The notes: generated by a model from the letters alone, not told the origin. DNA of 64,000 bases from an uncultured candidate division Zixibacteria bacterium (GCA_963806185.1 CAWDXE010000007.1:736001-800000); one strand, 5' to 3'. Numbered from the stretch's first letter, positions 21,012 to 58,037 are shown. Made by a program: numbers and translations.

Positions 21012-22421
21012 CTATTGGCACGAGCCGAGCGGAGCGGAGGTGAGGAAGAGAAACCCTATAAGTCGGGTCAAATCGCCGATATCAACATTGCCGTCAAGCG
21101 AACCATCCGTGTTTGCCTCCCCCGTGCAGATTGTTGCTCCCCCCAGAAACAAGAATTGGACCAGCGTTGTCAGGTCGCCCACGTCAATAGACTGATCCGC
21201 CGAATTGTCGACGTTGCCCGTTATACCCTCGCAACACGGACCGCACGAAAACGCCGCTCCGGTTGGGACTATTTTCACCACCGTCCCTGAATTGAGATTG
21301 CAGATATACATCTCGCCGAAATAGTCCTCGCCAAATGACACCAGGTCGTAGTTGTTCCGTCCGATTTGAGCATCCAGGCTTGTCACGTCAGTGACGATGC
21401 CGTTTGTCTGGGTGAGAGCCCAGATCTCACCCGAACAATAGTCACCAAATAAATAGGCACCCTGTAAATCAGGTATCGCGCACCCCCGATAGACATACCC
21501 GCCGGTAATGGAGCAACGGGAGATTTCATGCAGATATTCCCAGATCGGATCGGTCAAGCCGACCAGCGTGTCACACCCGGTCGACGGAGTGTAACAATGG
21601 GTACCCTCTTTGAGTCGCCATCCGAAGTTGGCCCCACCGGTACTCGACGCCGGCTGCCAATCGATCTCTTCCCATTGGCCTTGCCCAACGTCGGCGATGA
21701 GCATATCTCCTGTGAGTCGATCGAAGCTCCACCGCCAGGGGTTGCGCAGCCCCTTCACCCAGATTTCAGGGAGGGGGGAAACCTGACCGAAATATGGATT
21801 CGACGGTGGAATCGAATACCCGCCTGCCGCCGTCGTGTCCGCCTCGATTCGCAGCATCTTGCCCAGCAGCGACAGGGGACTCTGGGCGTAGTTGCTCGGG
21901 TCACCGGCCGAACCACCGTCGCCAAGGCCGATGTACAAATATCCGTCCGGTCCGAACGCCATCATGCCGCCATTATGATTTGATGCCGGCTGAGGTACGG
22001 TGAGGACCAGCTTTTCACTCGACACGTCGGCGCTGTCGGCATTGCCGGTCACGTGAAACCTCGATACGACCGTTCGTCCGTCCGTCTTGGCCGTGTAGTA
22101 GACAAAGAAGATACCGTTGTTCTGGTAGTCCGGATGAAACGTCAGGCCGAGCAACCCTTGCTCATTTCCCGTTGAAAGAACCCCCGTGTGAATGTCGAGA
22201 AAGGATGAATCCAACAAAACACCGCTCTTGACTATCCGGATGTAGCCGGCCTGTTCAATAATGAACAGCCGGGTCGAATCGCCCGGTGCGGCCGTGACGA
22301 AGATCGGCCGGGTCAAGCCTGACGCTATCGGCAGCGTCTTGAGAGAATAGGCGAAAAGTGATTCGCCGGTCAATACGGCCAGAACCACACTAATCAGCAC
22401 AATTACGGTACGACGAAACAT
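21012..22421 (-). CDS. Secreted PQQ-dependent sugar dehydrogenase (GSDH family) with C-terminal dockerin-like tail
   Basis: Signal peptide, EQGLLGLTFHP, NHNGG, FGPDGYLY, GDGG, GLRNPWR, DVGQ, SFGED; tail at 21012-21236. Confidence 0.9.
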   Translation of the reverse strand: MFRRTVIVLISVVLAVLTGESLFAYSLKTLPIASGLTRPIFVTAAPGDSTRLFIIEQAGYIRIVKSGVLLDSSFLDIHTGVLSTGNEQGLLGLTFHPDYQNNGIFFVYYTAKTDGRTVVSRFHVTGNADSADVSSEKLVLTVPQPASNHNGGMMAFGPDGYLYIGLGDGGSAGDPSNYAQSPLSLLGKMLRIEADTTAAGGYSIPPSNPYFGQVSPLPEIWVKGLRNPWRWSFDRLTGDMLIADVGQGQWEEIDWQPASSTGGANFGWRLKEGTHCYTPSTGCDTLVGLTDPIWEYLHEISRCSITGGYVYRGCAIPDLQGAYLFGDYCSGEIWALTQTNGIVTDVTSLDAQIGRNNYDLVSFGEDYFGEMYICNLNSGTVVKIVPTGAAFSCGPCCEGITGNVDNSADQSIDVGDLTTLVQFLFLGGATICTGEANTDGSLDGNVDIGDLTRLIGFLFLTSAPLGSCQ

Positions 22422-22473
22422 GATGCACTCCCGGATGAAGTGGTGGGTACGATAACGGCGGCAACTCGTTGAT

Positions 22474-22502
22474 AATATACTAACTTAGTCCAATTTAGTC
22501 AA
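22474..22502 (-). promoter_or_regulatory. Putative sigma70 promoter of the GSDH gene
   Basis: TTGACT-N17-TATATT on the minus strand. Confidence 0.6.
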
Positions 22503-22716
22503 GCGAAAGCTGCCCGCCTGAACCTCCGATCTTAATCCTTCGATCTTTTTCTTCGTCTCAACGTAGACGATATTTGTATATTATGACGAAGGGCCATTTT
22601 TTGAACCGCGGCTGTCACTGCACTGGCAACCAAATGCGCCTGCGCAAGCCATCGGCGCCGCGAACATGGCTGGACTCCGGCCAACCGGCCGGCCGGCATT
22701 AGGGAGGATATTCGAT

Positions 22717-23538
22717 ATGGACCAACTGACGACAGCCGTTGAACACCATTATGGGACCGGCCGCATCATGCAGAACATCATGGCCGCCATGCAAAACGCC
22801 GGCAAAGACCTGGGGAATCTGACGCTCGATGATCTGGCGCCGGTCGACGAATTTCATATCCGCGGTCGCGAGGGAACCATGGAGTTGGCCGGACTGGTGC
22901 CCCTTAAACCTGGAACTCGCGTGCTCGACGTCGGCTGCGGCATCGGCGGCTCTTCGCGCTATCTGGCGATCACCTACAAGTGCAAGGTGACAGGGGTCGA
23001 TTTAACTCACGAATTTGTACACGTGGCCGCAAAGCTCTCGCACATGATCGGCCTCGACGGTTCCATCGATTACCAGCAGGGCAGTGCTCTCGATTTGCCG
23101 TTTGAGGATAAGTCGTTCGACGTCTCCTGGACGCAGCACGTGCAGATGAACATCGCGGATAAGCACAAATTCTACGCGGAAATGGCTCGCGTGCTGGTAC
23201 CGGGCGGGCGCCTGGTGTTCCACGACATCTTTCGGGGCCCGAGCGGTGATCCCCATTATCCGGTGCCGTGGGCGGATGATCCGTCAATCAGTTCTCTTGT
23301 CACGCCTGATACCGCTCTTGAGATTTGCGCAAATCTCGGTTTGCGGAAACAGGTCTGGGAGGATACCACGCAAAAGTCGCTGGCCTGGATCGAGATGATG
23401 GCCAGTCGGCCGCCCGCACCCGATCGCCCCGGCCTCAACGTCCTCATGGAAGCGGCGACCAAGGTGAAAATGGGGAACATCATACGGAGTCTGAAAGAGA
23501 ACCGCCTCGCCGTCATTCAGGCGGTCTGGCAGAAATAG
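22717..23538 (+). CDS. Class I SAM-dependent methyltransferase
   Basis: DEFHIRG, VLDVGCGIGG, LPFEDKSFD, RVLVPGG; SD GGGAGG before ATG 22717. Confidence 0.9.
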   Translation: MDQLTTAVEHHYGTGRIMQNIMAAMQNAGKDLGNLTLDDLAPVDEFHIRGREGTMELAGLVPLKPGTRVLDVGCGIGGSSRYLAITYKCKVTGVDLTHEFVHVAAKLSHMIGLDGSIDYQQGSALDLPFEDKSFDVSWTQHVQMNIADKHKFYAEMARVLVPGGRLVFHDIFRGPSGDPHYPVPWADDPSISSLVTPDTALEICANLGLRKQVWEDTTQKSLAWIEMMASRPPAPDRPGLNVLMEAATKVKMGNIIRSLKENRLAVIQAVWQK

Positions 23539-23573
23539 TAGCTTTCGGATTACCCGATCTCACCCGCTAGATT

Positions 23574-24057
23574 GTCATTCTGGGCCTCGTCGAGGCCCAG
23601 AATCCATGGGGCGATCATTGCGTCGCTGATGCCGCCTCCCCAATCACATAACTTCGACATCAACGAGTCATCGCGAGGCTCGTCTTCGAGCCGTGGCGAT
23701 CTCTCAGTACATAGGTTCGGGCCTACAGTTAGCGGCTCGACGGCTTTCCATTTTACTCACATAACGCCCAATCATTGTCATCGGGTGAATGCTACCACAT
23801 CTCACGCAAAACGGCTGGCGCACGAGACGTACGCCAGCCACTAGTCATTGTCATGCCGGCGAAAGCTGGTATCCAGAGTAGAATTTGCATACGAATCATG
23901 CTTCGACGGAGTTTATCCTGAGCGAAGCCGAAGGGCTCAGCATGACGCTACGCGATGACGAAGGCCATTGTGTTGAGTCGAAACCGAAGCGGTTTCGACC
24001 TACAGGGGAGACCTGAAAGATCGCCACGGCGCGTTCAGAAACGCGCCTCGGGATGAC
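23574..24057. repeat. Cluster of at least 7 REP-like palindromic elements (GTCAT-headed, GTAG- and GTGG-headed)
   Basis: Hairpins at 23574-23605, 23667-23703, 23813-23841, 23850-23876, 23897-23946, 23977-24003 and 24018-24057; the second and last are inverted copies of each other. Confidence 0.75.
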
Positions 24058-32807: not shown

Positions 32808-34469
32808 ATGAAAAAACTCATGGTGACAGCGCTCCTGGCCGCTCTTACGGCCGCAACGGGCCGGACGGCGACTATTCACGTCCCGGCCGATCAACCGACT
32901 ATTCAGGCCGGCATCGATGCCGCGGTGAACAATGATACGGTTATCGTCGCGCCGGGAGAGTATTTCGAGAACATCTCCTTTCGCAATAAGACCCTTGTGC
33001 TGGCCAGTGACTATCTGGCGAGCGGCGACGTAAACGACATCCGGACAACCATCATTAATGGCAGCCAGCCAACCTACCCGGACACCGGCAGCGTTGTCAT
33101 CATGCCCGGCGGGCAGACGGGCACTACCCTCCTGGCCGGATTCACCATCACCGGCGGCACTGGGACAATCTGGCGAGATGTCTCCGACAACCTTCTGTAT
33201 CGCGAAGGAGGAGGCATACTCGTCGAAGGCGGTAATCCCAGAATCGAACGGAATATGATCATAGACAACGCGGCTGATTTTTACCCGGGCAACAGCGCCG
33301 GAGGAGGCGCCATTCGCGTTGGCTTCGGTGCGGCGTCACTGGTCGGCAATCTCATCGCCTACAATCGGGGTCGATACGGAGCCGGAGCAGTTTTCTTCTT
33401 CTCGGCCGCGGTCATCAAAAACAACATCTTTTGGAAAAATGCGGGCGGCCAGGACTTCGGTGGCGGTGGCATGTGGCTCGCCAATGGAACCGCCAACGCC
33501 GAAGTGACCAATAACACCATAGTCGCAAATACCTCCACTGGGGCAGGGGGCGGCATACTCGTGCGTGGTCAGACAGCGACCATTTTGAATTGCGTCGTGC
33601 GCGGTAACTCGGGAACTCTTGGTGCCCAAATCCGCCTCGGAACAGGAACGGCCGGCACAGATGTGCTCTATAGTGACGTGCAGGGCGGCTTTGCCGGTAC
33701 CGCCAATTGGGACGCCGATCCGCAATACGCCACTACCAACCTGCTCCTACTGTCAAGCTCTTCGTGCATCGACTCCGGTTGGAGCAGCGCGGCCTACTAC
33801 GACAAAGAAGACCCGGACAACCTCGGCTTCGCGCTTTTTCCGTCCCAAGGTGCTCGCCGTAATGATGTCGGAGCGTACGGCGGTCCCAACGCGCGATCCC
33901 TGCCTCTGTTCACCTCGGCCGAGTTTGGACTCGTTACCGATTCCATTGGCTTTACACCCACCGGGTCAGGCGATACCGCCGGCGCGTGGATTACTTTCTC
34001 GAAAATCTGGTTCGGCCCGGTGAAGATCGACAGCATTCGTTTCAAGCACACTCCGACAAATATTCTCTTTGCCAAGACGACCCTTCCACACACCACCGAT
34101 ATATCGCGCGGCCCCGACTCCGTGCAAATCGGCTGGTCTCCCGTCGCGCTTGGCGAATTGACCGACACGGCGCTGGTGTACCACAATGATTCGACCACCA
34201 TTAGTCCGTTCCAGGTCATCGTCACGGGGCAGACCGTGGGATGTTGTGTGGCCGCAACCGGCAACATCGATTGCGATCCGGGTGACAATGTCGACATCGG
34301 TGATTTGACTTCTCTTATCGACAACCTCTTTGTCACCTTTACGCCCCTCTGCTGCACTCAGGAAGCCAATTGCGACGGCGATCCCGGCGGCAATGTTGAC
34401 ATCGGCGACCTGACCTCCCTGATAGACAATTTGTTCGTGAGCTTTACACCGCTTGCGGGGTGTCAGTGA
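32808..34469 (+). CDS. Secreted parallel beta-helix (pectin lyase-like fold) protein with Ig-like domain and dockerin-like tail
   Basis: Signal peptide, TIHVPADQPTIQAGID, GFTITGG, repeated GGGI..N motifs, RNDVGAYGGP; tail at 34242-34469. Confidence 0.85.
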   Translation: MKKLMVTALLAALTAATGRTATIHVPADQPTIQAGIDAAVNNDTVIVAPGEYFENISFRNKTLVLASDYLASGDVNDIRTTIINGSQPTYPDTGSVVIMPGGQTGTTLLAGFTITGGTGTIWRDVSDNLLYREGGGILVEGGNPRIERNMIIDNAADFYPGNSAGGGAIRVGFGAASLVGNLIAYNRGRYGAGAVFFFSAAVIKNNIFWKNAGGQDFGGGGMWLANGTANAEVTNNTIVANTSTGAGGGILVRGQTATILNCVVRGNSGTLGAQIRLGTGTAGTDVLYSDVQGGFAGTANWDADPQYATTNLLLLSSSSCIDSGWSSAAYYDKEDPDNLGFALFPSQGARRNDVGAYGGPNARSLPLFTSAEFGLVTDSIGFTPTGSGDTAGAWITFSKIWFGPVKIDSIRFKHTPTNILFAKTTLPHTTDISRGPDSVQIGWSPVALGELTDTALVYHNDSTTISPFQVIVTGQTVGCCVAATGNIDCDPGDNVDIGDLTSLIDNLFVTFTPLCCTQEANCDGDPGGNVDIGDLTSLIDNLFVSFTPLAGCQ

Positions 34470-34632: not shown

Positions 34633-35802
34633 ATGCAGGCAGATCACACGATGAATTCAGATGAGCGGGCTCTCGCCTTTATGATGGTCAAAACCACCAA
34701 CACCGAAATCGCCGCGCGCCCTCTGGAACGACGTTGGGTGCGGGCGCTGCTTTTGGTGTTGATCTGGACATTCATTGCCGTCCTCATCGCCTCGCTCAGT
34801 CATCTCCGGATGCTGTATCTGGGGAATGAATCCCATTACTGGAAATGGCTCCTGGATTCTGTCATCGGCTGGAACGCCTGGGCCGCTCTGACTCCGGTCA
34901 TCATTTGGCTCGGTCGCAAGGTAAAGATTGAGCGCGAAGTCTGGCTGTCGCGCGCTCTCTGGCACGTCCCAATGGCCATCGGCATCGTCACTATTCGTGC
35001 CATGTTCGGCATTTTCACGTCCATGGTTGTCATGGGTGAGACGCTGACCATAGCCACTTATCTCGACCAGATGCTTCGCTATCTTATCTGGATGGCGCCG
35101 TGGGATCTGGTCATCTACGGCGGCATTCTCGGTTTCTCCTACGCCATTGAATACCGGAGGCAGCTCCGCGATCGGGAACTGGAGTCGGTACGACTCGAAG
35201 CCGCCTTATCGAAGGCCCAGCTCGATGCCCTGCATGCGCAACTGCAGCCTCATTTCCTGTTTAATACCCTGAATTCCATCTCTGTTCTTATGCAAACCGG
35301 CCGGGTGGACTCGGCCGATCGCATGCTGCGCCACCTCAGTGAGCTGCTTCGCTATGTACTCGCCAAAGGGACATTGCAGGAGGTGACTCTGGACGAGGAA
35401 ATGAAGTTCGTAAATGGTTATCTGGACATCGAACAAGCGCGCTTCGGCGCCCGATTGACCATCAACATTACTATCCCAACCGAACACCTCACTGCCCTGG
35501 TTCCAAGCTTTCTAATCCAGACTCTGGTCGAAAACGCAATCCGTCATGGCGTGGGGCCAAAGTCCGAGCCGGGTACTGTCTCGATACAGGTCAGCCGACG
35601 CGGCGACCGAATGTTGATTGAAGTTGCCGACGACGGGATCGGCATGAAGCAGGATGCCGATTCCAACTCCGGCGTAGGACTGCGCAACGCCCGCGCTCGT
35701 CTCCAGCGACTTTACGGTTCCTCGGCCACTCTCGAAATCAGCCGGCCGGAGGCAGGTGGCACTGTCGTGCGATTGGAATTGCCGTATCGGCGGGAAGAGT
35801 AG
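34633..35802 (+). CDS. LytS-family membrane sensor histidine kinase
   Basis: TM region, AQLQPHFLFNTLNSI, QTLVENAIRHG, DDGIG, GVGL; start uncertain. Confidence 0.93.
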   Translation: MQADHTMNSDERALAFMMVKTTNTEIAARPLERRWVRALLLVLIWTFIAVLIASLSHLRMLYLGNESHYWKWLLDSVIGWNAWAALTPVIIWLGRKVKIEREVWLSRALWHVPMAIGIVTIRAMFGIFTSMVVMGETLTIATYLDQMLRYLIWMAPWDLVIYGGILGFSYAIEYRRQLRDRELESVRLEAALSKAQLDALHAQLQPHFLFNTLNSISVLMQTGRVDSADRMLRHLSELLRYVLAKGTLQEVTLDEEMKFVNGYLDIEQARFGARLTINITIPTEHLTALVPSFLIQTLVENAIRHGVGPKSEPGTVSIQVSRRGDRMLIEVADDGIGMKQDADSNSGVGLRNARARLQRLYGSSATLEISRPEAGGTVVRLELPYRREE

Positions 35803-35807
35803 GCCAG

Positions 35808-36780: not shown

Positions 36781-38688
36781 ATGCGTAATTGGCTGACCGC
36801 CGGGCTCGTCTTAGCCCTGACCACTGCGACCCAGGCCGCCTATTTTACCAAAGTCACCAGCGGCCCGGTAGTGACCGACGGCGGCGATTCGCGCAGCGTT
36901 GATTTCATCGACTACGATAACGACAACGACCTCGACCTGTATATCACCAACGGTCCAAAGCTTGGCGCGGTCAATTTTCTCTACCGCAACAACGGTGACG
37001 GTACCTTCACGAAGGTCACTGGCGACGACGCCGTGACGGTTGCCCTTGCCTATGACGGAGCCACCTTCGGCGATTACGATAACGATGGCGACCTCGACCT
37101 CTTCGTCGCCACATGGTGGGGAAACGTCGATCTGCTCTGTGAGAATAACGGTGACGGAACCTTCACGCGTATCACCAGCGCGCCGGTCGCGACCCTGGCC
37201 GGTCACGGCGAGGCGGGAAGCTGGGCCGACTGGGATAACGACGGTGACCTCGACCTGTATGTCGCCAACTCCGGGGGAGATCTGAAAGATTTCGTCTACA
37301 TCAACGATGGCACGGGCAATTTCGCCCGCATTCTGACCGGACAACTGGCCACCGACACAGATACGAAACGCGTCGGCGCCTGGGGTGACTACGATAATGA
37401 CGGCGATCTGGACCTGTTTATAGCCACAGAATCGGCCAATCCCAACCGACTTTATCAGAACCAGGGCGGCGGCGTATTGACTCAGGTAAACGCGGGAGCC
37501 ATTACCTCAGACAACGCCTTCTGCTTCAGCGGTAGTTGGGGCGACTATGACAACGACGGCGACCTTGACCTGTTTGCCACCTCCGCCGGTTCACAGGCAA
37601 GCAATCTGTTTAATAACCAGGGGAATGGCACATTCATAGAAATTACGAGCGGCGCTCAGGTAACAGATATAGCCAATTGCGTATCGAGTGGCTGGGCCGA
37701 CATTGACAACGACGGCGATCTCGACCTGTTTGTCACCACTGGCTTTGGCAGCCTGACGCAGAAGAACCGGCTGTACATCAATAACGGAGACGGAACATTC
37801 ACGCGGGACATCACTGATCCCACCACTATCGATAACGGCTGGACCTACGGCTGCGCGTTTGGCGACATTGACCGCGACGGCGATCTCGATCTGGCTATTG
37901 CCAAATGCGCGGGTGCGGCTGAGAACAACGGCCTGTTTCTCAATGACGGTAATGCCAACCATTGGCTGGACATCCGCCTTCAGGGAATGGTGAGCAATGC
38001 AAGCGCTATCGGCGCCCGAGTGCGCGTCAAGGCTACGATCAACGGCACTCCGGTCTGGCAGATGCGTGAAATCTCGAGTCAGGACGCTTACTGTAATCAG
38101 AGCGGCCTTTCAGCGCATTTCGGACTGGGCGACGCAACTGCGGTCGATTCAATCATCATGACCTGGCCTTCGGGCATCATCCGAGTTCTCGAGAATGTAC
38201 CGGTCGACCAGTTCCTGGTCGAGGCCGAATGCGTGAGCGATCCCGACGACGACGGCGTTCTCTGCCTCGACAACTGTCCGGCCACGCCGAATCCGGGTCA
38301 GGAAGACGCCGACAACGACGGCATCGGTGATCTCTGTGACGCCTGTCCGAACGACGCCAATAACGACGTCGATGGCGATGGGCTGTGCGCCAACCTCGAC
38401 AACTGCCCCCTCGTCTTCAATCCGGGTCAGGAAGACACCAACAATGACGGCATCGGTAACGCCTGTTGCTGTATCGGCGTCACCGGCAACATTGACTGCG
38501 ATTCCGGTCAGGGTGTTGACATCGGAGATTTGACGACGCTGATTGACAACCTATTCATTACCTTCACCACCTTGTGCTGCGATACTGAAGCTAATACTGA
38601 CGGTCTGGGAGGCGTCGACATTGGCGACCTGACCGCGCTGATCGACAACCTCTTCATCACCTTCACACCGACTGTCGCCTGTCAGTAA
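36781..38688 (+). CDS. Secreted FG-GAP/ASPIC-UnbV (CRTAC1-like) protein with thrombospondin type-3 repeats and dockerin-like tail
   Basis: Seven D-x-D-x-D-x-D-L-D-L blades, AIGARV and HFGLG, two DNCP..NPGQED repeats; tail at 38467-38688; SD AAGGAGG. Confidence 0.9.
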   Translation: MRNWLTAGLVLALTTATQAAYFTKVTSGPVVTDGGDSRSVDFIDYDNDNDLDLYITNGPKLGAVNFLYRNNGDGTFTKVTGDDAVTVALAYDGATFGDYDNDGDLDLFVATWWGNVDLLCENNGDGTFTRITSAPVATLAGHGEAGSWADWDNDGDLDLYVANSGGDLKDFVYINDGTGNFARILTGQLATDTDTKRVGAWGDYDNDGDLDLFIATESANPNRLYQNQGGGVLTQVNAGAITSDNAFCFSGSWGDYDNDGDLDLFATSAGSQASNLFNNQGNGTFIEITSGAQVTDIANCVSSGWADIDNDGDLDLFVTTGFGSLTQKNRLYINNGDGTFTRDITDPTTIDNGWTYGCAFGDIDRDGDLDLAIAKCAGAAENNGLFLNDGNANHWLDIRLQGMVSNASAIGARVRVKATINGTPVWQMREISSQDAYCNQSGLSAHFGLGDATAVDSIIMTWPSGIIRVLENVPVDQFLVEAECVSDPDDDGVLCLDNCPATPNPGQEDADNDGIGDLCDACPNDANNDVDGDGLCANLDNCPLVFNPGQEDTNNDGIGNACCCIGVTGNIDCDSGQGVDIGDLTTLIDNLFITFTTLCCDTEANTDGLGGVDIGDLTALIDNLFITFTPTVACQ

Positions 38689-38814: not shown

Positions 38815-41217
38815 GTGCGCCGCCGTCGATCTCAGCTGTTTACTCTTGCTTGTCTCCTTCTGACCGAAGTCTGGTTGCCCGGGATGCATGCTCTGGCCGA
38901 CTCGACAGACGCCGCGCTTGTTTCCTCCGCCTATCGCACGACCGAGCACAACGTCGGGCGGCTGGCCTTTTCATTAAACAACAATGGCGGCTTTGGCGGC
39001 ATGGCCAGCCTCTCGGGCTATCGGGATTATTTCACCGGCCGTCCGGTCCGCGACGGTGAGTATCCGATCGGCAGCGGACAGTCATTCATCGGTTTTGGCG
39101 GCCTCTGGGTTGGTGCCGTGGTTGGCAATGACACCCTCGTCTCGACCACTTTCAACAGCCCCGCCTATCAGAAGAATGGTCAAAACCAACCGGCGGTGGA
39201 GCTATTTGAGTTTCAACCCGGCGGCGACGGTGAAGAATCTCTGCAGAAGCGATCTACCCTCGCCCACGATTCAGGCGCTGTCTCCCATCAGGACATTCAA
39301 GCTATCTATGCCGATACGTGTACGACTTGTTTTCCGCAAACAATCGACTGGAAAGACAATCGCCCGCATCGACCCTTGGGAGTCGAAGTACGCCAGCAAT
39401 CATACGCGTGGACATATCCATGGGCTGATGCTGTCATCCTGATCGCTTACACCATCAAGAATGTGAGCACCAGCCAGCTTTCCAACCTCTTTGCCGGAAT
39501 CTACGTCGATGGCGACGTGGTCAATCGCGAGTATGCACCGCTTCGATACACCGATGACATGACCGGAATCCGATGGGTGACGACAAACAGTTCCTCGTGC
39601 CTGGCTGGGGATTCTATACTGATAGCGTGGATAGCTGATAACGACGGCGACGATTCTACTTGTGGCGGCATGTACACCCTTCCGCACGCATTAGCCGTTT
39701 CGGTACTGCAGGCTGACGGCGGCGCCGGCCTGCGCAGTTGTAATTGGTGGGTGACCGGAAGCAACGGCGACGATTTCGGCCCGCGCCGTCGCTCCACCGG
39801 CTCTGAACCGTATCGTGACTTCGGCACTGGCAACACCGGTGTCCCCTATGGCGACAAAACCAAATACTATATGCTCAGACACCGTGAATTCGATCACTCT
39901 CAATACTACACCAAAGCAATTGCGACCAACGATTCGCTCTGGTCGTACGTGCCGGATCGGAATCTGGCTTCGCGCGTCACCGTAGGCGGGGATATCCGGG
40001 TGCTCCTGTCAGTCGGCCCCTGGCAACTGGCGCCGGGGGAGGAGGCCTCCTTCGCGGCCGCCTTTATCGGTGGCGAAAGCCTCTTTACGAGTTGCGGCAT
40101 TCCCACCGGCCTGCCCGACCAGCCCGCGGCCTATGTCGCTCGCTTGAACTTCTCCTCGTTGGACGACAACACCGGGATTGCCTCGCGCATACTCGACGTT
40201 CCGGGCGTTGACTCGGATAGCGATGGCTACGCCGGCACCTTCATTGTATGCGATGCTGAGACTACCTGGACCGGCGGTGACGGCCGACCGGATTATCTCG
40301 CCGACGTCCCGCCGGTGCCGCCGATTGTCTCGGCCAATCCCATTGATGGCGGCTTTCGAGTTCGCTGGAACGGCGGTCCGTCGGAATTGCGGCCGGATCC
40401 GATCAGTCGCCGGGCTGATTTTGAAGAGTATCAAGTTTTGCTTGGTGCTGACTCCGCGAGTGAATTTACCGTCATCGCTACCTGGGACCTCGACGATTAC
40501 GTCAAGGAAGTGTGGCATCCGTCGACCGGTTCCTGGTGGTCCGATAATCTACGGTTGAGCGGTGACTCACTCCGTTGTCTGTACGCCCCACAGGGATGTG
40601 CTGACTCCGACTGGGATGCGGCCAGTTTCACGCGCATGTTGCCATTGCACCATCCCCAGTATTCCGATTCAATCTTCGCCTTTGCCCCGATCGGAAGAAA
40701 CGCCAAACTTGGCGAGACTACGGCGATACGAAAGCGATTCCCCGACGCGCCCAGGCCGGCGTATGCACGACCGTCGCTTGTGCCCCCGGAATCGACCCAG
40801 GTGTATCTCACCGATGCCGGTCTGTTCCGGTATTATGAATACGAAATGTACAGAGTCGGTTTGCCGGAAGGCGAGACCTGTTACGTAGCCGTCACGGCGG
40901 CCGACATCGCCTTCCCCGGACTGAATGAGCAACCCCGGGTATCGTCTCCGTCTGCCACCGTCCGCCCAGTGGCCGTTCCAATCCGATTGTGCTGTGCGGA
41001 AACAGTGGGCAACGTCGATTGCGATGAATTCGACGTCACCGACATCGCCGATCTGGCTGCCCTGGTGAATAATTTGTTCGTGGAGTTCTCACCGCCCTGC
41101 TGTTATCGAGAAGCCAATTGTGACGGCATCCCCGGTATTGACATCGGCGATCTGTCTGCGCTGATCAACCATCTCTTTATCTCCGGTGCGCCCCTGCCGA
41201 CCTGCGCTTCGGAGTGA
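38815..41217 (+). CDS. Large secreted protein of unknown function with dockerin-like tail
   Basis: GTG start after CAGGAG, signal-like N-terminus, HNVG..NNGGFG, GLWVGAVVGNDTLVST, QQSYAW; tail at 40990-41217. Confidence 0.75.
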   Translation: MRRRRSQLFTLACLLLTEVWLPGMHALADSTDAALVSSAYRTTEHNVGRLAFSLNNNGGFGGMASLSGYRDYFTGRPVRDGEYPIGSGQSFIGFGGLWVGAVVGNDTLVSTTFNSPAYQKNGQNQPAVELFEFQPGGDGEESLQKRSTLAHDSGAVSHQDIQAIYADTCTTCFPQTIDWKDNRPHRPLGVEVRQQSYAWTYPWADAVILIAYTIKNVSTSQLSNLFAGIYVDGDVVNREYAPLRYTDDMTGIRWVTTNSSSCLAGDSILIAWIADNDGDDSTCGGMYTLPHALAVSVLQADGGAGLRSCNWWVTGSNGDDFGPRRRSTGSEPYRDFGTGNTGVPYGDKTKYYMLRHREFDHSQYYTKAIATNDSLWSYVPDRNLASRVTVGGDIRVLLSVGPWQLAPGEEASFAAAFIGGESLFTSCGIPTGLPDQPAAYVARLNFSSLDDNTGIASRILDVPGVDSDSDGYAGTFIVCDAETTWTGGDGRPDYLADVPPVPPIVSANPIDGGFRVRWNGGPSELRPDPISRRADFEEYQVLLGADSASEFTVIATWDLDDYVKEVWHPSTGSWWSDNLRLSGDSLRCLYAPQGCADSDWDAASFTRMLPLHHPQYSDSIFAFAPIGRNAKLGETTAIRKRFPDAPRPAYARPSLVPPESTQVYLTDAGLFRYYEYEMYRVGLPEGETCYVAVTAADIAFPGLNEQPRVSSPSATVRPVAVPIRLCCAETVGNVDCDEFDVTDIADLAALVNNLFVEFSPPCCYREANCDGIPGIDIGDLSALINHLFISGAPLPTCASE

Positions 41218-45600: not shown

Positions 45601-48175
45601 CGAAAAAGCGATCCTGCAGGTGCGCGCCCCCTTTGGCGGCAAGCTTCTCGTGACGCTGGAAAGGGGAGAGGTGATCGACGTCATCACTCGCGATATGTCC
45701 GAGAATACCGCCGAACTTCAACTACCGGTCAAGAAGGAATATCTCCCCAATATCTACGTCACCGCCGCCGTTGTTCGGCCTGCCGACAGCCTCGAACCCA
45801 ATAAACCGGCGCGCGCCTTCGGTATGGTGCCGCTGGCAGTCTCAACTTCCGCCAAACGCATCGGCATGACTCTGACCGCGCCGGATGTGATCGCACCGCA
45901 CAGCACAATTACCGTCGCGGTACAGCTTGATAGGCCGAGAGCAAGTGACGTGACAGTGGCGGCCGTCGACGCCGGCATTCTGCAACTGACCGAATTCAAG
46001 ACGCCCGACCCGCTCACGTTCTTCTTCGGGAAAAAACAGCCGCATTTCAAACCGTACGATTTGTACTCGTTTCTCTATCCGCACGTCAACCAGGCCACCA
46101 GTCACCTGGCGGCGGGGGATAAGAGCCTTTTCGCGGCAGCTCGTCAGCGGCACCTCAACCCATTCACAGCCAATCGGGTCAAGTCGGTGGCCCTCTGGTC
46201 GGGAGTTCTGCACACCGACAGCGAGGGAAAAACTTCTGCTACGTTCGATATTCCCGAATTCAACGGCAAGCTGGTGGTGATGGCAGTTTCTTCGCAAGGC
46301 GAACTCTTTGGCTCCGCGACCCGCGACATCATCGTACGTGACAACATCGTCCTCCAGGAGAGTTTTCCCCGCTTCATCAGTCCCCGCGACAGCTTCGACG
46401 GCTTGATCACCCTTTTCAACAATACTGGTCAAACCGCCGACATCACGGTGACCGCCACTCCAACCGGCCCCCTCAAACTTGCCGGCCCGGCGTCGCTTAC
46501 TATTCCTGTTGAAAAGGGGCGGGAGGGTCATGCCATTTTCAGATTCAAGGCTGACGATGCACCCGGTACGATCAGCGTCGCCGTGAGCGCCACCGCTGGC
46601 AGCGACAAATCATCTCTCCATCTGGAGATGGCCAACCGTCCGGCCATGCCGTTGGTCACGCAGTACGGGTCGGGAACCGTTATCCCGGGCAAGCCTGCCA
46701 CGTTCGCTCTTCCTTCCGATTGGCTTGCCACCACCGATCAATATGTTCTGCAGACTTCCGGCCTGCCGGCCACAGCCCTGGCCAAACAGGTGCAATATCT
46801 TTTGCAGTATCCGTACGGTTGTGTTGAGCAGACGACATCCCGAGTATTCCCCTTGCTCTATTACAATGATCTGGTCAAAGTGGTCGAACCTGCACTCTTC
46901 GGTGGGCATGGTCACGAGTACTTTGTTCAGCAGGGCATCATCCGCCTCTCGAGCATGATTTTGCCTGATCGCTCGTTTGCCTTCTGGCCCGGTGGAACCT
47001 ACAGCAATTCGTGGTCCACCCTTTACGCCTCGCACTTTCTAACAGAGGCCAGTCGCTCGGGCTTCACCGTCGATAAGAAATTGCTCGGTAACATATACGA
47101 CAACCTGAACAATATCGCACGTGGCCGGCGGACAGATCGGATGACCGACGTTCATCGCGTGTATGCCGCGTACATACTCGCTCAGGCCGGCAAACTCGAC
47201 CAGTCAATCGTCAGCTACTTGAAACGCCTTGATGCCACCAAATTCCTTCCGGATACGCGCTACCAACTTGCCGGAGCGCTCGGTATCAGCGGCAATATGG
47301 CCGAGGCCGTTCGGCTGATCCCGACCGACATTCAGCCCAACCTCTTTGATCCCGAAACCGGCGGCGATTTTGGGTCGGGTGTCCGCTCGGATGCGATCGG
47401 CCTCGATGTCCTTCTCGCGATCAGCCCCGGAAATCCGTCGATCGATGTCCTGGCCGGTTCCCTGCTTCAACGAGCGCAGGCCGGACGGTGGTACTCCACG
47501 CAGGAAAACGCCTTTGCCCTGATGGCCTTGGGCAAGTACTTTAAGACGAAATCAAGTCTCGGTTTCACTGGAACGCTGGCGATCTTCGGCGATAAGACCT
47601 TCACCATCGATTCGACCGGCTTCAGGCTGACTCGCGCTGACTTGGGAGGGAAGAACATCACTGTCTCCGTCCTGAAAGGCGAGGGAACTTGCTACTACTA
47701 CTGGCAGGCTAGCGGCATTCCACGCACCACTGCCGCTCCGGAATTCGATCGCGGCATCCGGGTGCGTCGACAGTATCTTGATGAGGATGCCCTACCGATT
47801 GATCCGGCCAAGGTGAAGCTCGGCGACCGCATCGTATGTCTTGTCACCGCCGAGGCTGTCGACAAGCCCCTCTACAACGTCGTGATAAATGACCTCTTGC
47901 CCGCCGGACTTGAAGTGGAAAATCCCCGGCTAAAGACCACCCCCCGACTCTCCTGGATTCCCAGCGGCGGGATCTCGATCGACTATCAGGATATCCGCGA
48001 CGACCGCATTCTGCTGTTCGCCAATATCTACCCCGGTCAGCCGGTGAAGTTCTACTACAGCCTTCGCGCGATCAGCGCCGGAGAATTCAAGGTGCCGCCG
48101 GTCGCGGCGGAGTGCATGTATAATCCACTCATTGCCGGAAGCGCATCATCAGGCTCGATGACCATCACGCGGTGA
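42692..48175 (+). CDS. Bacterial alpha-2-macroglobulin
   Basis: 1827 aa; ITDLG, DRGVYRPG, EDFMP, thioester motif YPYGCVEQ, STQENAFAL, DLLPAGLE, DIRDDR; followed by pbpC. Confidence 0.95.
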   Translation: MAGFISQSIDRVKSHPRRFISYVAALTAVALLVFATLTLSLPDNEIRVTSFEPDGRVGMQTNITVKFSKKMVATDSVDRPVLNPPLKITPPIPGIARWIETDVLRFFPDGSLLPATRYSVAVQSDRTWEAGLKIVKPKTYQFFTPGLRFESASGWTEPVPDVNESVRLVARLVFNYPVNLKDLRDKLTIRTGGNAAKTQLNFVVRPTDQGYPPSDISTSAMAENLTASDVQVFSESIAKTKSDQTYVLKIDKGLLCQECGDATADPMTLSITIDRLYPLVINSTQSYSQGELVFIAVDFSQQISPETAGSYVSIEPKVDFTTEVSWSRLILRGPFRPGETYTVSIAKGMPSQLNHLLEEDFSTRVLIADLNPSVKFTSHGLFLPRSGNGLLELSTINLSKVVVETEQVFANNLVYFLLTGRGSVYGGDANYYDTRAEQLGRSIFIKDKELDGVRNTPLATTVDIKSIIADTAKGIFRVSVRDKEQRWIAASRYVLITDLGLSVRMADNYLMVWVNSLSTVTPTSGVTVTLYSKNNQPLLQGKTDSRGIVVFKEIGPHLAGFEPFVITAEKQGDLSYLRLDESLIPTSDFDVAGRPLLTSGYEAFVYADRGVYRPGDTAHFVSVVRGPEAKLPPGFPYLLTVFDPEGRKFQSFKMTTGAGMTGVDFVIPDYVPTGRYAVAATIGEDLQIGRMELLVEDFMPDKIRVDLRTLSSSYATGDTLKATVSARLLFGPPGAGYQVKSDMVIESQPFEPKGFSEYTFSADDRTFNRMSVNLRDTLLDDSGLHTFTYQLPPKLVAPSALKGLISATVSESGGRGVSAYAEVLIHPYPTYLGIKLARDGYTKPGEPVVAMVVAVNCDGQAVDLSGCKVRFNRIVYNTLLKRGQTGDYQWVSERKTQPLDSTVVSITGLGTTATFTPVAYGSYQITAEDPKGGHLSAVDLWVSGWGYAPWAMDHPDKIELALDKKEYQPGEKAILQVRAPFGGKLLVTLERGEVIDVITRDMSENTAELQLPVKKEYLPNIYVTAAVVRPADSLEPNKPARAFGMVPLAVSTSAKRIGMTLTAPDVIAPHSTITVAVQLDRPRASDVTVAAVDAGILQLTEFKTPDPLTFFFGKKQPHFKPYDLYSFLYPHVNQATSHLAAGDKSLFAAARQRHLNPFTANRVKSVALWSGVLHTDSEGKTSATFDIPEFNGKLVVMAVSSQGELFGSATRDIIVRDNIVLQESFPRFISPRDSFDGLITLFNNTGQTADITVTATPTGPLKLAGPASLTIPVEKGREGHAIFRFKADDAPGTISVAVSATAGSDKSSLHLEMANRPAMPLVTQYGSGTVIPGKPATFALPSDWLATTDQYVLQTSGLPATALAKQVQYLLQYPYGCVEQTTSRVFPLLYYNDLVKVVEPALFGGHGHEYFVQQGIIRLSSMILPDRSFAFWPGGTYSNSWSTLYASHFLTEASRSGFTVDKKLLGNIYDNLNNIARGRRTDRMTDVHRVYAAYILAQAGKLDQSIVSYLKRLDATKFLPDTRYQLAGALGISGNMAEAVRLIPTDIQPNLFDPETGGDFGSGVRSDAIGLDVLLAISPGNPSIDVLAGSLLQRAQAGRWYSTQENAFALMALGKYFKTKSSLGFTGTLAIFGDKTFTIDSTGFRLTRADLGGKNITVSVLKGEGTCYYYWQASGIPRTTAAPEFDRGIRVRRQYLDEDALPIDPAKVKLGDRIVCLVTAEAVDKPLYNVVINDLLPAGLEVENPRLKTTPRLSWIPSGGISIDYQDIRDDRILLFANIYPGQPVKFYYSLRAISAGEFKVPPVAAECMYNPLIAGSASSGSMTITR

Positions 48176-48185
48176 GGGGGAGATC

Positions 48186-50525
48186 ATGAACACGAAGTCG
48201 ATTCGTGACAAAAGCTCACAACGGCGGCGGCTCCGCCCTCTGCTTGGCGCGCTCATCGCGATTCTTGCGGCCGGAGCGCTCACCAATTGGGTGCTCTTTC
48301 CGTTGCCCAAAGAAAAACTGATCCGCCCGCACGGCGCCTACGTGTACAGTCGCGAGGGTCTGTTGCTGAATTGCTTTACCGCGGAAGATCGTTTCTGGCG
48401 CAAACCGGCGAAGCTGTCAGAAATCTCGCCGCTCCTGATCAAGAGCGTGCTCGCGTGCGAGGACCGATGGTTCTACTATCATCCGGGGTTCAATCCAATC
48501 TCTCTGGTAAGTGCAACCGTCGACAATGTACGGACGGGCAAGTTCGTGCGCGGCGGCTCTACCATCACTATGCAGATCGCGCGGATGATTGAGCCCAAAC
48601 CGCGCACCATTCCCAACAAAGCGCTGGAGATTCTCCGCGCCGTCCAGCTCGAACTAGCCTATTCCAAGTCCGACCTTCTCGAAATTTACTTCAATATTGC
48701 CCCGTATGGTGGCAATATTGAAGGAGTTGGGAGCGCGGCGCACCTCTACTTTGGCAAGGACCCGCTCCACCTTTCACCCTCCGAAGTAGCCATTCTCACC
48801 ACTATCCCGGCCTCTCCCACGAGGTTCCGGCCCGACGCTGATCCAGCCGCCTGCGTCCGACGACGCAATGTCGTGCTCAATCGACTCTGCGCCTCAGGAC
48901 TCATTAGCCGGTCCGACCGCGACGAGGCGATGAAAGAGGACGCTCCCGTCCGTCGCACCGATAGCCCCGTCGCCGCGCCCCACTTCTGTCAGTCGATAAC
49001 ATCGGCGCACTCTTCCGAAGCAGTCATCCGAACAACTCTCGACTACGCCTTGCAGCAGACGTGTGAGAATCTGTCCCTCGGCTACCAATCCATTCTTCGC
49101 GACAAAGGGATCAGCAACTTGGCCCTCGTGGTCATTGATAACCAGTCCGGTGAGCTGCGCGCCATGGTCGGGTCGGCTGACTTCGGCGACCTGCTTCATC
49201 AGGGACAGATCAATGGCGCCCTGGCGCCGAGATCCCCCGGCTCGGCACTCAAACCATTTGTCTACGCTCTCGGCTTCGAGAAGGGGCTCATCTCGCCGGC
49301 CAGGAGAATCGAGGATCTGCCTACCAACTACGCCGGCTATATCCCGGTCAATTACGACGGCGAGTACCACGGCGTCGTGTCGGTGAGCGATGCCTTGATC
49401 CAGTCGCTCAACGTTCCGGCAGTGAACTTGTGTGCCCGCCTTGGCTTGGGTAACGTGTACGATCTCTTCAAGCGTGGCGGAATCACAACTCTGTGTCGAA
49501 AACAATCCGAGTATGGCCTGCCGCTTGTGCTGGGTGCCTGTGAAGTCAATCTGATCGAACTTAGCAACCTGTATGCGACGCTGGCACGGGGCGGACTCTA
49601 CCGCCCCGTACGGATGCTTCAAGCTGACACGTCCGGTCCATCGTTTCGCCTGCTCTCGGAGGCTTCAACGTATCTCGTCTCCGAAATACTCGCCGAACTC
49701 AAACGGCCCGACCTTCCGTCAAGTTGGGAAGCTACAGCCGGCATGCCGCGCGTGGCCTGGAAAACCGGGACGTCGTACGGCCGCAAGGATGCCTGGGCGA
49801 TCGGTTACACGCCGCAGTTCACCGTCGGCGTCTGGGCCGGCAACTTCACGGCCGAGGGCTCCATCGCGATTGTCGGCGCCGAGATCGCCGCGCCACTCAT
49901 GCTCGACATCTTCAATCACCTCGCCACCCTTCAAGGGCAGAACTGGTTCGAAACGCCGCCCTCAATCGATGTCCGGTCAGTTTGCGCTATCAGCGGTATG
50001 CCGGCCGGCGATGCCTGCGATCAGACCCTGTCGGAACAATATATCATCGGCGTTACTCCCGAACAGACCTGCACGGTGCATCGCAAGATTCACGTGGATC
50101 CCAAAACAAGAAACCAGGTTTGTGTGTTTTGTCAGGGAAACGCGCCCGCCGAGGACAGGGTGATCGAGATATGGCCCCCGAAAATCGCCACCTGGCTGTT
50201 GCGTCACGGCATCATCGACTTCGAGCCTCCCCACAATCCGGCCTGCCGGGGTGAAGCCGGGGGAGAAGGCCCGATCATCACCTCACCCGAACCCGGCGCA
50301 GTGTACTTTGTCCAGAACAAAGCGCACCCCGAGTTCCAGAAGATTCTCTTCGAGGCTTCCGCTGCCGCTGATTGTCGTGAAGTACATTGGTTTCTCGACG
50401 GACAGCTCGTTGCGTCAGCGGCGCCCGAATCACGCGTCCTGTACGCCCCACCGACCGGCAACCACAGACTGCTCTGTATTGATGGCAACGGCCGTTCCAG
50501 TGCCGTCTCATTTACCGTACAATAG
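48186..50525 (+). CDS. pbpC: Penicillin-binding protein 1C
   Basis: Transglycosylase EDRWF and GGSTITMQ; transpeptidase SALK, SLN, KTGTS; C-terminal domain; paired with alpha-2-macroglobulin. Confidence 0.95.
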   Translation: MNTKSIRDKSSQRRRLRPLLGALIAILAAGALTNWVLFPLPKEKLIRPHGAYVYSREGLLLNCFTAEDRFWRKPAKLSEISPLLIKSVLACEDRWFYYHPGFNPISLVSATVDNVRTGKFVRGGSTITMQIARMIEPKPRTIPNKALEILRAVQLELAYSKSDLLEIYFNIAPYGGNIEGVGSAAHLYFGKDPLHLSPSEVAILTTIPASPTRFRPDADPAACVRRRNVVLNRLCASGLISRSDRDEAMKEDAPVRRTDSPVAAPHFCQSITSAHSSEAVIRTTLDYALQQTCENLSLGYQSILRDKGISNLALVVIDNQSGELRAMVGSADFGDLLHQGQINGALAPRSPGSALKPFVYALGFEKGLISPARRIEDLPTNYAGYIPVNYDGEYHGVVSVSDALIQSLNVPAVNLCARLGLGNVYDLFKRGGITTLCRKQSEYGLPLVLGACEVNLIELSNLYATLARGGLYRPVRMLQADTSGPSFRLLSEASTYLVSEILAELKRPDLPSSWEATAGMPRVAWKTGTSYGRKDAWAIGYTPQFTVGVWAGNFTAEGSIAIVGAEIAAPLMLDIFNHLATLQGQNWFETPPSIDVRSVCAISGMPAGDACDQTLSEQYIIGVTPEQTCTVHRKIHVDPKTRNQVCVFCQGNAPAEDRVIEIWPPKIATWLLRHGIIDFEPPHNPACRGEAGGEGPIITSPEPGAVYFVQNKAHPEFQKILFEASAAADCREVHWFLDGQLVASAAPESRVLYAPPTGNHRLLCIDGNGRSSAVSFTVQ

Positions 50526-55326: not shown

Positions 55327-55345
55327 TTCAATCTGGTGGGGGAGA

Positions 55346-55873: not shown

Positions 55874-55903
55874 CAATCATCTCCCGGATAACTGCCACCA
55901 CGT

Positions 55904-56497: not shown

Positions 56498-56627
56498 CTG
56501 ATTCCTTCTGCCGAACCGACGGTTGGCGTTCGCGGGCTCTCTGCTTGGCCAACTTGCCTAAGCTAGGTGTTGAGGAGTTAGCGGGCAATTACTGTTTATG
56601 GGTGATTCGTGTGCCGGCTGATTTAGG

Positions 56628-56664
56628 AAAAGAAGAGGCCGGCCCAATGCATGGGTCGGCCTCT
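56628..56664 (-). terminator. Intrinsic terminator of the cytochrome gene
   Basis: AGAGGCCGACCCA-loop-TGGGCCGGCCTCT followed by TCTTTT on the minus strand. Confidence 0.75.
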
Positions 56665-56678
56665 GCAGCTCAGCATGC

Positions 56679-58037
56679 CTACTGACAGGCGGGAAGTGGG
56701 GCGAAGGTGATGAACAGATTGTTGATCAACGCCGTGAGATCACCCACATCGACGCTGTTCGTCGGGTCACCATCGCAATTCGCTTCAGCCTGACAGCACA
56801 GTGGGTCAAAGGTAATGAAGAGATTGTTGATGAGCGCCGTCAGGTCGCCGATATCGACTCCGTCGCCCGCGCTGCAATCAACATTCCCAACTGCGCCAAT
56901 ACAACAGCCGCCGGCATGCAACCCGTGCGGTCCCGCCCCGGTCGGTACCACGCCGTGGCAAACCGCGCACGTATTGAGCGTCCCGGCATGCCCCTGCAAG
57001 GCGATATTCTGCACGTTGTCGCGCGCATTTCCGCTCGGCACAATCGCGTGCGGCTCACCGTGACAAGCACTGCAGAATAATCCGCCATGCCCGCGCGATT
57101 CCCGAAATAGCTTCCCCGGCTCCTCCGCATATGTCGCACCGTGGCAGGACGACGCCCCGCACGACGGTTCCTGCAACCAGGGATTCCGGCCGCTGCTGAT
57201 ACTTTCACCTACCTGAGTCACCGACCCGTGGCACATCTGGCAGGTAAACCCATGTTGGGTTTTCATGACATCGCGCAGACACTGCGTATTCGGTCCGGGG
57301 TGGCACTTGTAACAATCGTTGGTCCGCTCACCGTGCGCCTTGTGAATGGCTTCGGACAAGGAGGGTACGCCCGGCTTGCCCGGCGTCCCCAGTGCATTCG
57401 ATGAATGGCAGATCGCGCAGAGTATCGGCGTCTGCGTCGGATCAAACCCGGCTTCTCCGGCGTGTAGGTCCAGAATTCCCTGGGCGCTTGCGTGGCAGCC
57501 GGAACTGACGCAATTGATTTCATTTGACACCGGTACCACGGGCGGTGCTGTCCCCAACAAATTGCTCGACAAATCGTACGCCTTCAACAAGCCCAGTTGA
57601 AATGGATCCTCGTGCGTCAAGTCGGCGTCGGTGTACGGAGTGACGGGGACGCCACTGATGAAGAAGTGATCGCCCGCCGTCGGTACCATCTCGCCTGATA
57701 ACCCGTGCCCGGTCAGGCCGACATTCGGAGGCAGGTCAACGCCGAATATGGCGTAGTCGTAATCCCAGAAATTGGTTTTCCCGACCGAGTATGTGTTACC
57801 CGGTATTTCATACGTCACATGAACTCCGGTCGTCAGGATAACCGGCAGGTGGGTGGAATCGCCTACCTGTATCACCTGGGCTCGAACATTGTTGTACGGT
57901 GGCAATACGACAAAGGTGGAAAAGTCAAGATTGCTGCAATGCATGCCGAGGTCGTTCCACCCAATGACCACATAGTCGGCGGCAAACAACGGGGAGCATG
58001 CCACCACGAAGATGATTGCCAGGAAAACCCTCTTCAT
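56679..58037 (-). CDS. Secreted multiheme c-type cytochrome with dockerin-like tail
   Basis: Signal peptide, GWNDLGMHC, five CxxCH (CAICH, CYKCH, CQMCH, CSACH, CAVCH) and two CX4CH (CVSSGCH, CGASSCH); tail at 56679-56906. Confidence 0.9.
   Translation of the reverse strand: MKRVFLAIIFVVACSPLFAADYVVIGWNDLGMHCSNLDFSTFVVLPPYNNVRAQVIQVGDSTHLPVILTTGVHVTYEIPGNTYSVGKTNFWDYDYAIFGVDLPPNVGLTGHGLSGEMVPTAGDHFFISGVPVTPYTDADLTHEDPFQLGLLKAYDLSSNLLGTAPPVVPVSNEINCVSSGCHASAQGILDLHAGEAGFDPTQTPILCAICHSSNALGTPGKPGVPSLSEAIHKAHGERTNDCYKCHPGPNTQCLRDVMKTQHGFTCQMCHGSVTQVGESISSGRNPWLQEPSCGASSCHGATYAEEPGKLFRESRGHGGLFCSACHGEPHAIVPSGNARDNVQNIALQGHAGTLNTCAVCHGVVPTGAGPHGLHAGGCCIGAVGNVDCSAGDGVDIGDLTALINNLFITFDPLCCQAEANCDGDPTNSVDVGDLTALINNLFITFAPLPACQ

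Follow-up and report, generated by a model that had tools for sequence, protein, structure and literature searches.

The window analysed here is a stretch of 64,000 nucleotides from an uncultured candidate division Zixibacteria bacterium (G000:C7:736001-800000, in genome G000, whose 3.65 Mb assembly is 82% complete). It holds five genes whose products end in the same cysteine-rich module, which we refer to as the tail (Table 1). The tails lie where a first-pass annotation had placed them, each being translated there as the last ~75 residues of its open reading frame (ORF), and their alignment has 27 invariant columns, with 49–71% identity to the first tail. As the five cargos have nothing in common besides the tail, this likeness is, at the level of sequence, far above chance. 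Every N-terminus reads as a Sec signal peptide, as that annotation had also proposed, when judged by eye.

Table 1. Tailed proteins of the window and their tails, with positions counted from the first nucleotide of the window
Feature	Position	Strand	Basis
Cargo 1: signal peptide, GSDH/HHIP-like propeller and dockerin, 469 residues	21012..22421	-	PF07995, E 7.7e-37
Cys-rich dockerin tail on the GSDH-family beta-propeller protein (cargo 1)	21012..21236	-	translation, alignment; fold of family
Cargo 2: signal peptide, right-handed beta-helix and dockerin, 572 residues	32751..34469	+	PF13229
Cys-rich dockerin tail of cargo 2; copy used for folding, helices 22–34, 42–45 and 57–69	34242..34469	+	
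Cargo 3: signal peptide, FG-GAP propeller, ASPIC/UnbV, TSP3 and dockerin, 635 residues	36781..38688	+	Pfam
Cys-rich dockerin tail of cargo 3	38467..38688	+	translation, alignment
Cargo 4: protein without named family, and dockerin, 826 residues	38737..41217	+	
Cys-rich dockerin tail of cargo 4	40990..41217	+	translation, alignment
Cargo 5: signal peptide, multiheme cytochrome c and dockerin, 452 residues	56679..58037	-	cytochrome c7-like (Pfam)
Cys-rich dockerin tail of cargo 5	56679..56906	-	translation

Cargo 1 had been described as a pyrroloquinoline quinone (PQQ) sugar dehydrogenase. It does contain a GSDH-family propeller, but the PQQ label stays unverified: with TIGR03606 it scores 45 bits, where the cutoff is 435, and among PDB sequences the propeller of Hedgehog-interacting protein ranks best (E 3e-40), above the bacterial dehydrogenases sGDH and Asd (best E 1e-16). 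Translation and upstream sequence point to the ATG at 32808 as the likely start of cargo 2, and the GTG at 38815 is a possible start of cargo 4. The latter has no match in Pfam, NCBIfam or PDB sequences, and its atlas look-alikes are unnamed clusters in Zixibacteria, Bacteroidota and Fidelibacterota. Cargo 5 carries five CxxCH heme motifs and two longer-spaced ones.

In cellulosomes, the dockerin is the plug, made of a duplicated calcium-binding loop and helix, and the cohesin is its socket. A dockerin reading of the tail, already suggested by the first-pass annotation, is supported by the predicted fold, which matches cellulosomal dockerins, although Pfam misses all five tails. An AlphaFold2 model of the tail of cargo 2, built from 56 sequences (pLDDT 94), shows two long helices with a short helix between them. 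In a Foldseek search, the one structure comparison used for the tail, the 19 best-listed rows were all dockerin chains, the best with a TM-score of 0.82, a root-mean-square deviation (rmsd) of 1.9, a probability of 1.00 and an E-value of 0.08 (rmsd 1.7–1.9 over the best rows). The atlas neighbours of the tail are Zixibacteria clusters of PF00404 (0.94) and an unnamed Planctomycetota cluster, and the single, weak match of the tail profile among PDB sequences is the dockerin-bearing 4fl4_A (E 1.7). At E ≤ 0.01, the Pfam family Dockerin_1 is not called in any of the five proteins of the window; PF00404 reaches 19 bits on one window tail, under its cutoff, and occurs at 28 places genome-wide at E ≤ 0.01. 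The dockerin identity therefore rests on the predicted fold and the atlas neighbours.

The sequence of the tail has further regularities. Among 57 aligned tails of the Cys type, four cysteines are near-invariant (present in 57, 57, 55 and 57), and two extra cysteines occur as both or neither (42 tails with both, 13 with neither, 2 with a single one; p 4e-11), a pattern that suggests an optional disulfide. Asp and Asn residues are conserved in the loops, and the tail would bind two Ca2+ ions and form disulfides. The two helices inside one tail are 84% identical, and this near-symmetry suggests, by analogy, a dual binding mode like that of cellulosomal dockerins, where such symmetry hints at a dual mode and where specificity is determined at positions 10 and 11 (passages of PMC8063739).

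The module is by no means confined to the window. A hidden Markov model of the five tails matched 91 of the 38,906 six-frame ORFs of G000, and 93 after iteration; 59 of the 93 carriers have a Cys-rich CC-x-GN start. The C-terminal position noted in the window holds for 87 of them, where the module ends at most 15 residues from the end of the protein, whereas in six it is internal or N-terminal. Four proteins carry the Cys-rich module directly after the signal peptide (C7:886346-887239, C7:699042-701000, C7:703444-705318 and C6:144096-146417 of G000), one of them with a lamin-tail domain and convergent to the adaptor gene described below. Signal peptides are enriched among the carriers, 71 of 90 passing, but the rule is crude, since 231 of 740 other long ORFs pass it too; the two rules applied, with control pass rates of 40% and 31%, speak for enrichment only. 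The rule is also passed by 32 of 42 proteins that end in a type IX secretion system (T9SS) C-terminal domain (CTD), and several carriers that fail it are 5'-truncated ORFs, probably from frameshifts. The tail profile matches 118 of 151 genomes of the phylum and 55 of 55 in the family, and PF00404 matches 42 of the 44 genomes selected, as many as 105 times. Those homologues of the window's proteins that have names are from Zixibacteria, and NCBI labels certain homologues 'dockerin type I' proteins of Zixibacteria.

The cargo is varied, with peptidases, adhesin-like proteins and proteins of unknown kind in the majority, and redox cargo is rare. In a Pfam scan of the 84 non-window carriers of at least 150 residues (E ≤ 1e-5, best five matches per protein), 14 are peptidases (six S8, two M6, and one each of M1, M12, M28, M43, M64 and C10), 45 have no Pfam match for their cargo, and the remainder comprises propellers along with Ig/PKD/fn3, lectin, TSP3, lamin-tail and CAP proteins. 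The longest carrier, of 3,037 residues, is a protein with Ig/cadherin repeats. At the other end stand tiny carriers of about 165–220 residues, with one short unnamed domain and the tail (C7:39156-41983, C4:47580-48158 and C4:490923-491702 of G000). Among the Pfam matches listed for the 84 carriers, and in the five window proteins, there is no glycoside hydrolase. Canonical CxxCH motifs occur in just 2 of the 93 carriers, so that the emphasis on redox enzymes in the first-pass annotation mirrors the content of the window and not that of the genome. In 25 cases, a carrier of G000 shares a region with a CTD-bearing protein.

Those CTD proteins belong to a secretion system that the genome encodes at least in part. 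SprA, PorU and two PorV-family proteins pass curated NCBIfam cutoffs (TIGR04189 for SprA, 543 against 200; NF033707, 654 against 420; NF033709, 206 and 233 against 90), and SprA is found in 44 of 44 genomes tested. The genome has 43–45 type A CTD proteins, PF18962 giving 43 CTD-like tails, while none of the five window cargos has a type A CTD (TIGR04183, PF18962). One cluster (L017:2619-11994; G000:C4:246618-255993) encodes PorU, an M6-like inactive metalloprotease and an 868-residue protein in which two regions are PorV-like. A PEP-CTERM protein is encoded at L010:5355-6134 (-), which suggests a third C-terminal sorting system in this genome.

Among the window ORFs no cohesin turned up, as had been remarked before, yet the genome has about 20 cohesin-like ORFs. 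PF00963 occurs at six places, three of them above cutoff; iteration gives 16 solid ORFs and a broader profile 23–26, some of them weak. They fall into four classes, namely cohesin-CTD, cohesin-dockerin-X-CTD, cohesin with a terminal dockerin, and one cohesin alone. The simplest is encoded at G000:C7:884798-885637 and consists of a signal peptide, a cohesin and a CTD, nothing more; we call it the adaptor. In a structure search the top 47 rows for the adaptor were all cohesins, and its residues 25–177, compared by Foldseek and a second-look aligner, match type I cohesins (VIA Z 14.4, rmsd 2.4, 134 residues aligned with 5nrm_A). The predicted fold is the nine-stranded jelly roll of cohesins, although the PF00963 score, 22.3 bits, is slightly below cutoff. 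Its C-terminus scores 48.6 bits with TIGR04183, against a cutoff of 23, and the last residue is a conserved lysine; with its signal peptide and C-terminal CTD the adaptor has the features of a T9SS type A substrate. The gene is single-copy and conserved across the phylum as cohesin plus CTD without further domain. Within the family, orthologues of about 260–365 residues come from 54 of 55 genomes; phylum-wide, matches exist in 137 of 151 genomes, and the weakest of these matches may be other cohesins. Four genomes without a match hold divergent small cohesin-CTD genes, and family-level absence thus reflects query sensitivity. A profile from the adaptor alignment, run against genome contigs, was swamped by CTD matches; G120, from which no intact ORF was recovered, is not in that alignment.

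These observations give the plug-in display envisaged by the first-pass annotation a candidate partner, cohesin domains fused to T9SS CTDs, whereas binding and localisation are inferred. The tail likely binds, in a Ca2+-dependent manner, the cohesin of T9SS substrates, most likely that of the conserved small adaptor. We judge it probable, on the whole, that this is a cohesin-dockerin display of a non-cellulosomal kind, coupled to the T9SS, in which cargo docks on T9SS-exported cohesins by whichever route it travels.

Larger cohesin proteins accompany the adaptor. A 1,631-residue ORF 12 kb beyond the window end (G000:C7:811787-816682; L008:2788-7683 +), scanned apart from the 84 carriers, has a subtilase followed by dockerin-cohesin-dockerin-cohesin-dockerin-dockerin-CTD, with TSP3 repeats. 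It is the sole ORF with both the Cys-rich tail module and a CTD (1 of 45 strong CTD ORFs, first tail profile), and a broader tail profile finds a divergent internal dockerin in five more CTD ORFs. No multivalent scaffoldin was seen, the maximum being two cohesin-like domains per ORF in a genome that is incomplete and has some frameshifted genes. Cohesin genes split across frames lie at G000:C7:619805-621230, an apparent cohesin-cohesin-CTD gene, and at C6:188629-194002, two cohesin-dockerin-X-CTD genes; since relatives have intact cohesin-dockerin-X-CTD versions of ~710 residues, the splits are likely assembly errors. In families f9 and f14 (G085, G067, G119, G080; L092, L095, L093, L104, L105), small cohesin-CTD genes, two or three in tandem, lie upstream of a cohesin-cohesin-dockerin-X-CTD gene, and the terminal dockerins there have a different helix signature.

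One cohesin protein, at G000:C1:385498-386205 (L010:3499-4206 +), has a signal peptide and a cohesin-like domain but no CTD; this solo cohesin is mostly single-copy and is kept in 22 of 30 genomes. It opens the possibility that tailed proteins stay in the periplasm, tethered by CTD-less cohesin proteins, and the periplasm suffices for heme attachment and disulfide formation. The cargo itself, however, with the Ig/cadherin giant, PKD, FG-GAP and lectin domains and M6, M12, M43, M64 and S8 peptidases, several of which share regions with CTD-bearing proteins, speaks against such retention, which we hold to be very unlikely.

Comparison among genomes also bears on whether tail and cohesin are partners at all. 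Cohesins and dockerins co-occur, both being present in 8 of 10 tested genomes and neither in the other two (G066 and G090), which are the two of 44 without PF00404 and the two of the ten without PF00963; SprA is kept in both. Orthologues of the cytochrome of cargo 5, near full-length, occur in 27 of the 150 other genomes of the phylum, with 71–82% identity between genomes, and all 24 sequences recovered (G000 included, 25 loci; G144, with a stop codon within its match, was left out) have a dockerin-type terminal tail. Over these 24 genomes, the identity of the cytochrome body is 78% within families and 76% between them, and that of the tail 52% and 37%. Between the G000 cytochrome tail and those of unrelated G000 proteins identity is 67%, and the tails closest to that of the cytochrome are, in 8 of 8 genomes, the others of its own genome (1–20 comparison tails each, chosen by score). 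By tblastn, the neighbouring genes of the cytochrome show no synteny in 24 related loci. Four-fold synonymous sites among the G000 tails stand at 0.38 against 0.315 expected, near saturation, so the likeness of the tails lies mainly in the protein, which points to constraint at that level, and recent gene conversion at the DNA level is not supported as its general cause, a few paralogue pairs excepted. Each lineage appears to have its own helix signature, as in a lock-and-key code.

A tail without any cohesin partner, acting as a calcium- and disulfide-stabilised cap or as a self-associating module spread by domain shuffling, with the cohesin-like domains as generic Ig-like spacers, would fit the many cohesin-like matches inside long multidomain proteins, and a recent founder copy could make the tails of one genome alike. 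Set against this are the amino-acid conservation in the face of near-saturated synonymous sites, the joint absence of dockerins and cohesins from two genomes, and the retention across the phylum of a single-copy gene that encodes a cohesin and a CTD and nothing else, and we regard it as most improbable.

Tail and adaptor also change together. Their similarities to the G000 counterparts are correlated (Spearman rho 0.52 over 53 genomes; 0.50, p 0.003, over 32 genera; G140 and G145, for which a DnaG or adaptor value is missing, were left out), and neither tracks DnaG. In genus g5 the adaptor keeps 40–47% identity in the cohesin and 62–64% in the CTD. The solo cohesin has no such drop in g5 and g30 (59–60% versus 60–65%, one genome each). 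In addition, 117 of the 120 closest cytochrome homologues have a dockerin, 115 of them terminal, two have a T9SS CTD and one has neither; in the two CTD-ended proteins the CTD lies at the position of the tail, on a body 72–74% identical. A further idea, that genomes without an adaptor match keep only CTD-backed dockerins, failed: among 30 dockerins sampled, 15 stood at the C-terminus and 6 had a CTD after them.

The replacement of the tail by a CTD in these two homologues keeps the first-pass alternative of a C-terminal secretion signal alive, if only indirectly, but the tail has a dockerin fold and is not CTD-like. A related scheme would make the tail itself the export signal, with a recycling cohesin-type receptor, such as the solo cohesin, handing the cargo to the translocon and no lasting display. 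The C-terminal position in most carriers, the swaps with CTDs and the CTD-less cohesin protein kept by most of the 30 genomes are compatible with it; however, it is the cohesin-CTD adaptor and not the solo cohesin that has co-diverged with the tails in g5 and g30, module copies at internal and N-terminal positions exist, and the SprA, PorU and PorV ORFs contain no cohesin-like match. We find this scheme decidedly unlikely.

As for the route taken by cargo that docks on T9SS-exported cohesins, joint passage through the periplasm and the absence of CTDs from the cargo make periplasmic capture followed by passenger export the likeliest one. Sec would take the cargo into the periplasm, as suggested by the signal peptides read by eye and enriched in the crude test. 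There the tail, folded as predicted, would take up its two Ca2+ ions, make its disulfides and dock on the adaptor cohesin, a step to which fold, co-occurrence and co-divergence point. Adaptor and cargo would then cross the outer membrane together via SprA, with the cargo as passenger, and PorU, by extension from Bacteroidota, would clip the CTD of the adaptor and anchor it on the surface. The bigger cohesin-dockerin-CTD proteins may add branching scaffolds, and about ninety secreted proteins that otherwise lack a signal would in this way be shown on the cell surface. The passage through SprA, whose pore of about 7 nm lets folded proteins through (parts of the review PMC12398890), is the weakest step, and we see it as plausible rather than probable.

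Alternatively, the cargo could leave by another route, for instance a second, pilus-type secretin resembling a type II secretion system, and bind surface cohesins only after export; the docking step would be the same and the export step alone would differ. Two secretin loci exist, one with PilB/GspE-, PilC/GspF- and pilin-like genes, and the very large carriers would be hard to move through SprA as complexes. Both secretins, however, score higher as PilQ than as GspD, with no GspD above cutoff, and to judge by sequence both loci look like type IV pilus systems, although the second may have a T2SS-like role; the CTD at the tail position of two cytochrome orthologues likewise argues against a separate route, which we consider unlikely.

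Several observations weigh against T9SS-coupled display as proposed here. The Foldseek E-values of the tail are weak, because the domain is short, the six carriers with an internal or N-terminal module depart from the pattern of a C-terminal tag, and all pairing evidence is genomic or fold-level, with about 20 other cohesin-like ORFs that could be the true partners. The kin genomes in the co-divergence are not independent, and the removal of genera g5, g30 and g23 lowers rho to 0.35 (p 0.06). The g5 adaptor changes are not enriched on the binding-face strands (7/37 versus 7/35), strands that were assigned by analogy and on which inward and outward residues were pooled. Family f7 has a good adaptor but just 6–14 dockerin matches. 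With regard to export, carriers of up to 3,037 residues are possibly too large to ride through, and a single literature search, with portions of one review, brought up no precedent for passenger export by a T9SS. Finally, GldM/PorM (PF12081) was found in 0 of 5 genomes, in a search run without a positive control and not extended to GldK, GldL and GldN, so the T9SS here may be atypical.

Other genes of the window lie near the tailed ones. The stretch 19900-21002 (+) encodes a sigma factor of the ECF type and what is probably an anti-sigma membrane protein, and its end is 10 bases away from the cargo 1 stop; a LytS-type kinase and LytTR regulator at 34633-36599 (+), between cargo genes 2 and 3, may regulate the two. 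An alpha-2-macroglobulin gene of bacterial type, followed by one for a penicillin-binding protein with a BiPBP_C domain, spans 42692-50525 (+), which we take to be a known pair. Genes for a polysaccharide pyruvyl transferase, a GT2 protein and a Wzm/Wzt-type ABC transporter form a surface glycan locus at 59213-63630 (+). In Bacteroidota, PorU exchanges the CTD for anionic lipopolysaccharide (A-LPS; sections of PMC12398890), and it is speculation that the glycan locus supplies the PorU acceptor here.

The arrangement works like cellulosome-type docking, yet it is not a cellulosome. As in clostridial type I pairs (PDB 4fl4, 5nrk/5nrm, 4dh2, 2ccl), both folds, the duplicated loop-helix, the near-symmetric helices and a C-terminal tag on varied cargo are found; in contrast to them, sequence identity is 10–25%, four to seven cysteines are conserved, there is no multivalent cellulose-binding scaffoldin, an outer membrane has to be crossed and the cargo is not cellulolytic. 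Closer precedents come from other diderms. For Candidatus Stygibacter (Cloacimonadota), a putative cellulosome-like complex has been deduced from the genome (Williams et al. 2021, PMC8542988). According to sections of that report, this uncultured diderm likewise has signal-peptide enzymes with C-terminal dockerins (there S8, C25, GH18 and GH57) and a cohesin protein ending in a CTD, both systems being known from genomes alone. It differs in having one scaffoldin of 3,755 residues with tandem cohesins and carbohydrate-binding modules, a handful of enzymes and a single genus, and those sections do not deal with the way in which dockerin cargo gets across the outer membrane. The Zixibacteria genome has about 90 carriers, and many relatives have dozens; the adaptors mostly have a single cohesin, the tail is Cys-rich with lineage-specific helix signatures, the cargo includes a cytochrome, and there is no glycoside hydrolase in the matches listed.

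The 'planctosome' of Nemodlikiaceae (Planctomycetes) is, in portions of PMC6461901, a hypothetical cohesin-dockerin display of peptidases. It shares with our system a non-cellulosomal peptidase display in a diderm, adaptors with both modules, and TSP3 and lamin-tail domains that also occur on Zixibacteria carriers; the anchor proposed there is the lamin-tail domain and not a T9SS CTD. In comparison with type A sorting in Bacteroidota (parts of PMC12398890), SprA, PorV-family proteins, PorU and CTD proteins are shared, whereas the tail is a helical dockerin and not a CTD, GldM was not found, and dockerin-tailed proteins outnumber CTD proteins by about two to one. We found no open-access paper on Zixibacteria with dockerins, cohesins or a T9SS, in a search that did not extend to subscription journals, other spellings of the name or supplements, and the main text of PMC11557425, a survey of cellulosomes, contains no 'Zixi'. 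As the general idea has been published for Cloacimonadota and Planctomycetes, the surprise is limited. What is added here is an intact, conserved monovalent adaptor, a genome-specific tail code, its co-divergence, and the exchange of dockerin and CTD on the cytochrome.

From a practical point of view, one small, soluble candidate partner is now named that can be expressed, natural lineage variants are at hand for questions of specificity, and designer enzyme scaffolds would profit from orthogonal cohesin-dockerin pairs, which may be stabilised by disulfides. Passenger export, if true, would be a new mode for the T9SS. If the display holds, it would explain how much of the secretome of an abundant uncultured phylum is presented, and the plug-and-socket pair of cellulosomes would have found another use throughout a diderm phylum, on proteases, adhesins and a cytochrome. 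Altogether, we put forward, tentatively, that Zixibacteria may have handed most of their T9SS targeting over to a code of cohesins and dockerins. A single small cohesin-CTD adaptor would pick up, in the periplasm, whatever protein has a dockerin tag and take it through SprA, and the dockerin would stand in, exchangeable and specific to the lineage, for the secretion and display signal of about 90 proteins of G000, an external, conserved multiheme cytochrome among them.

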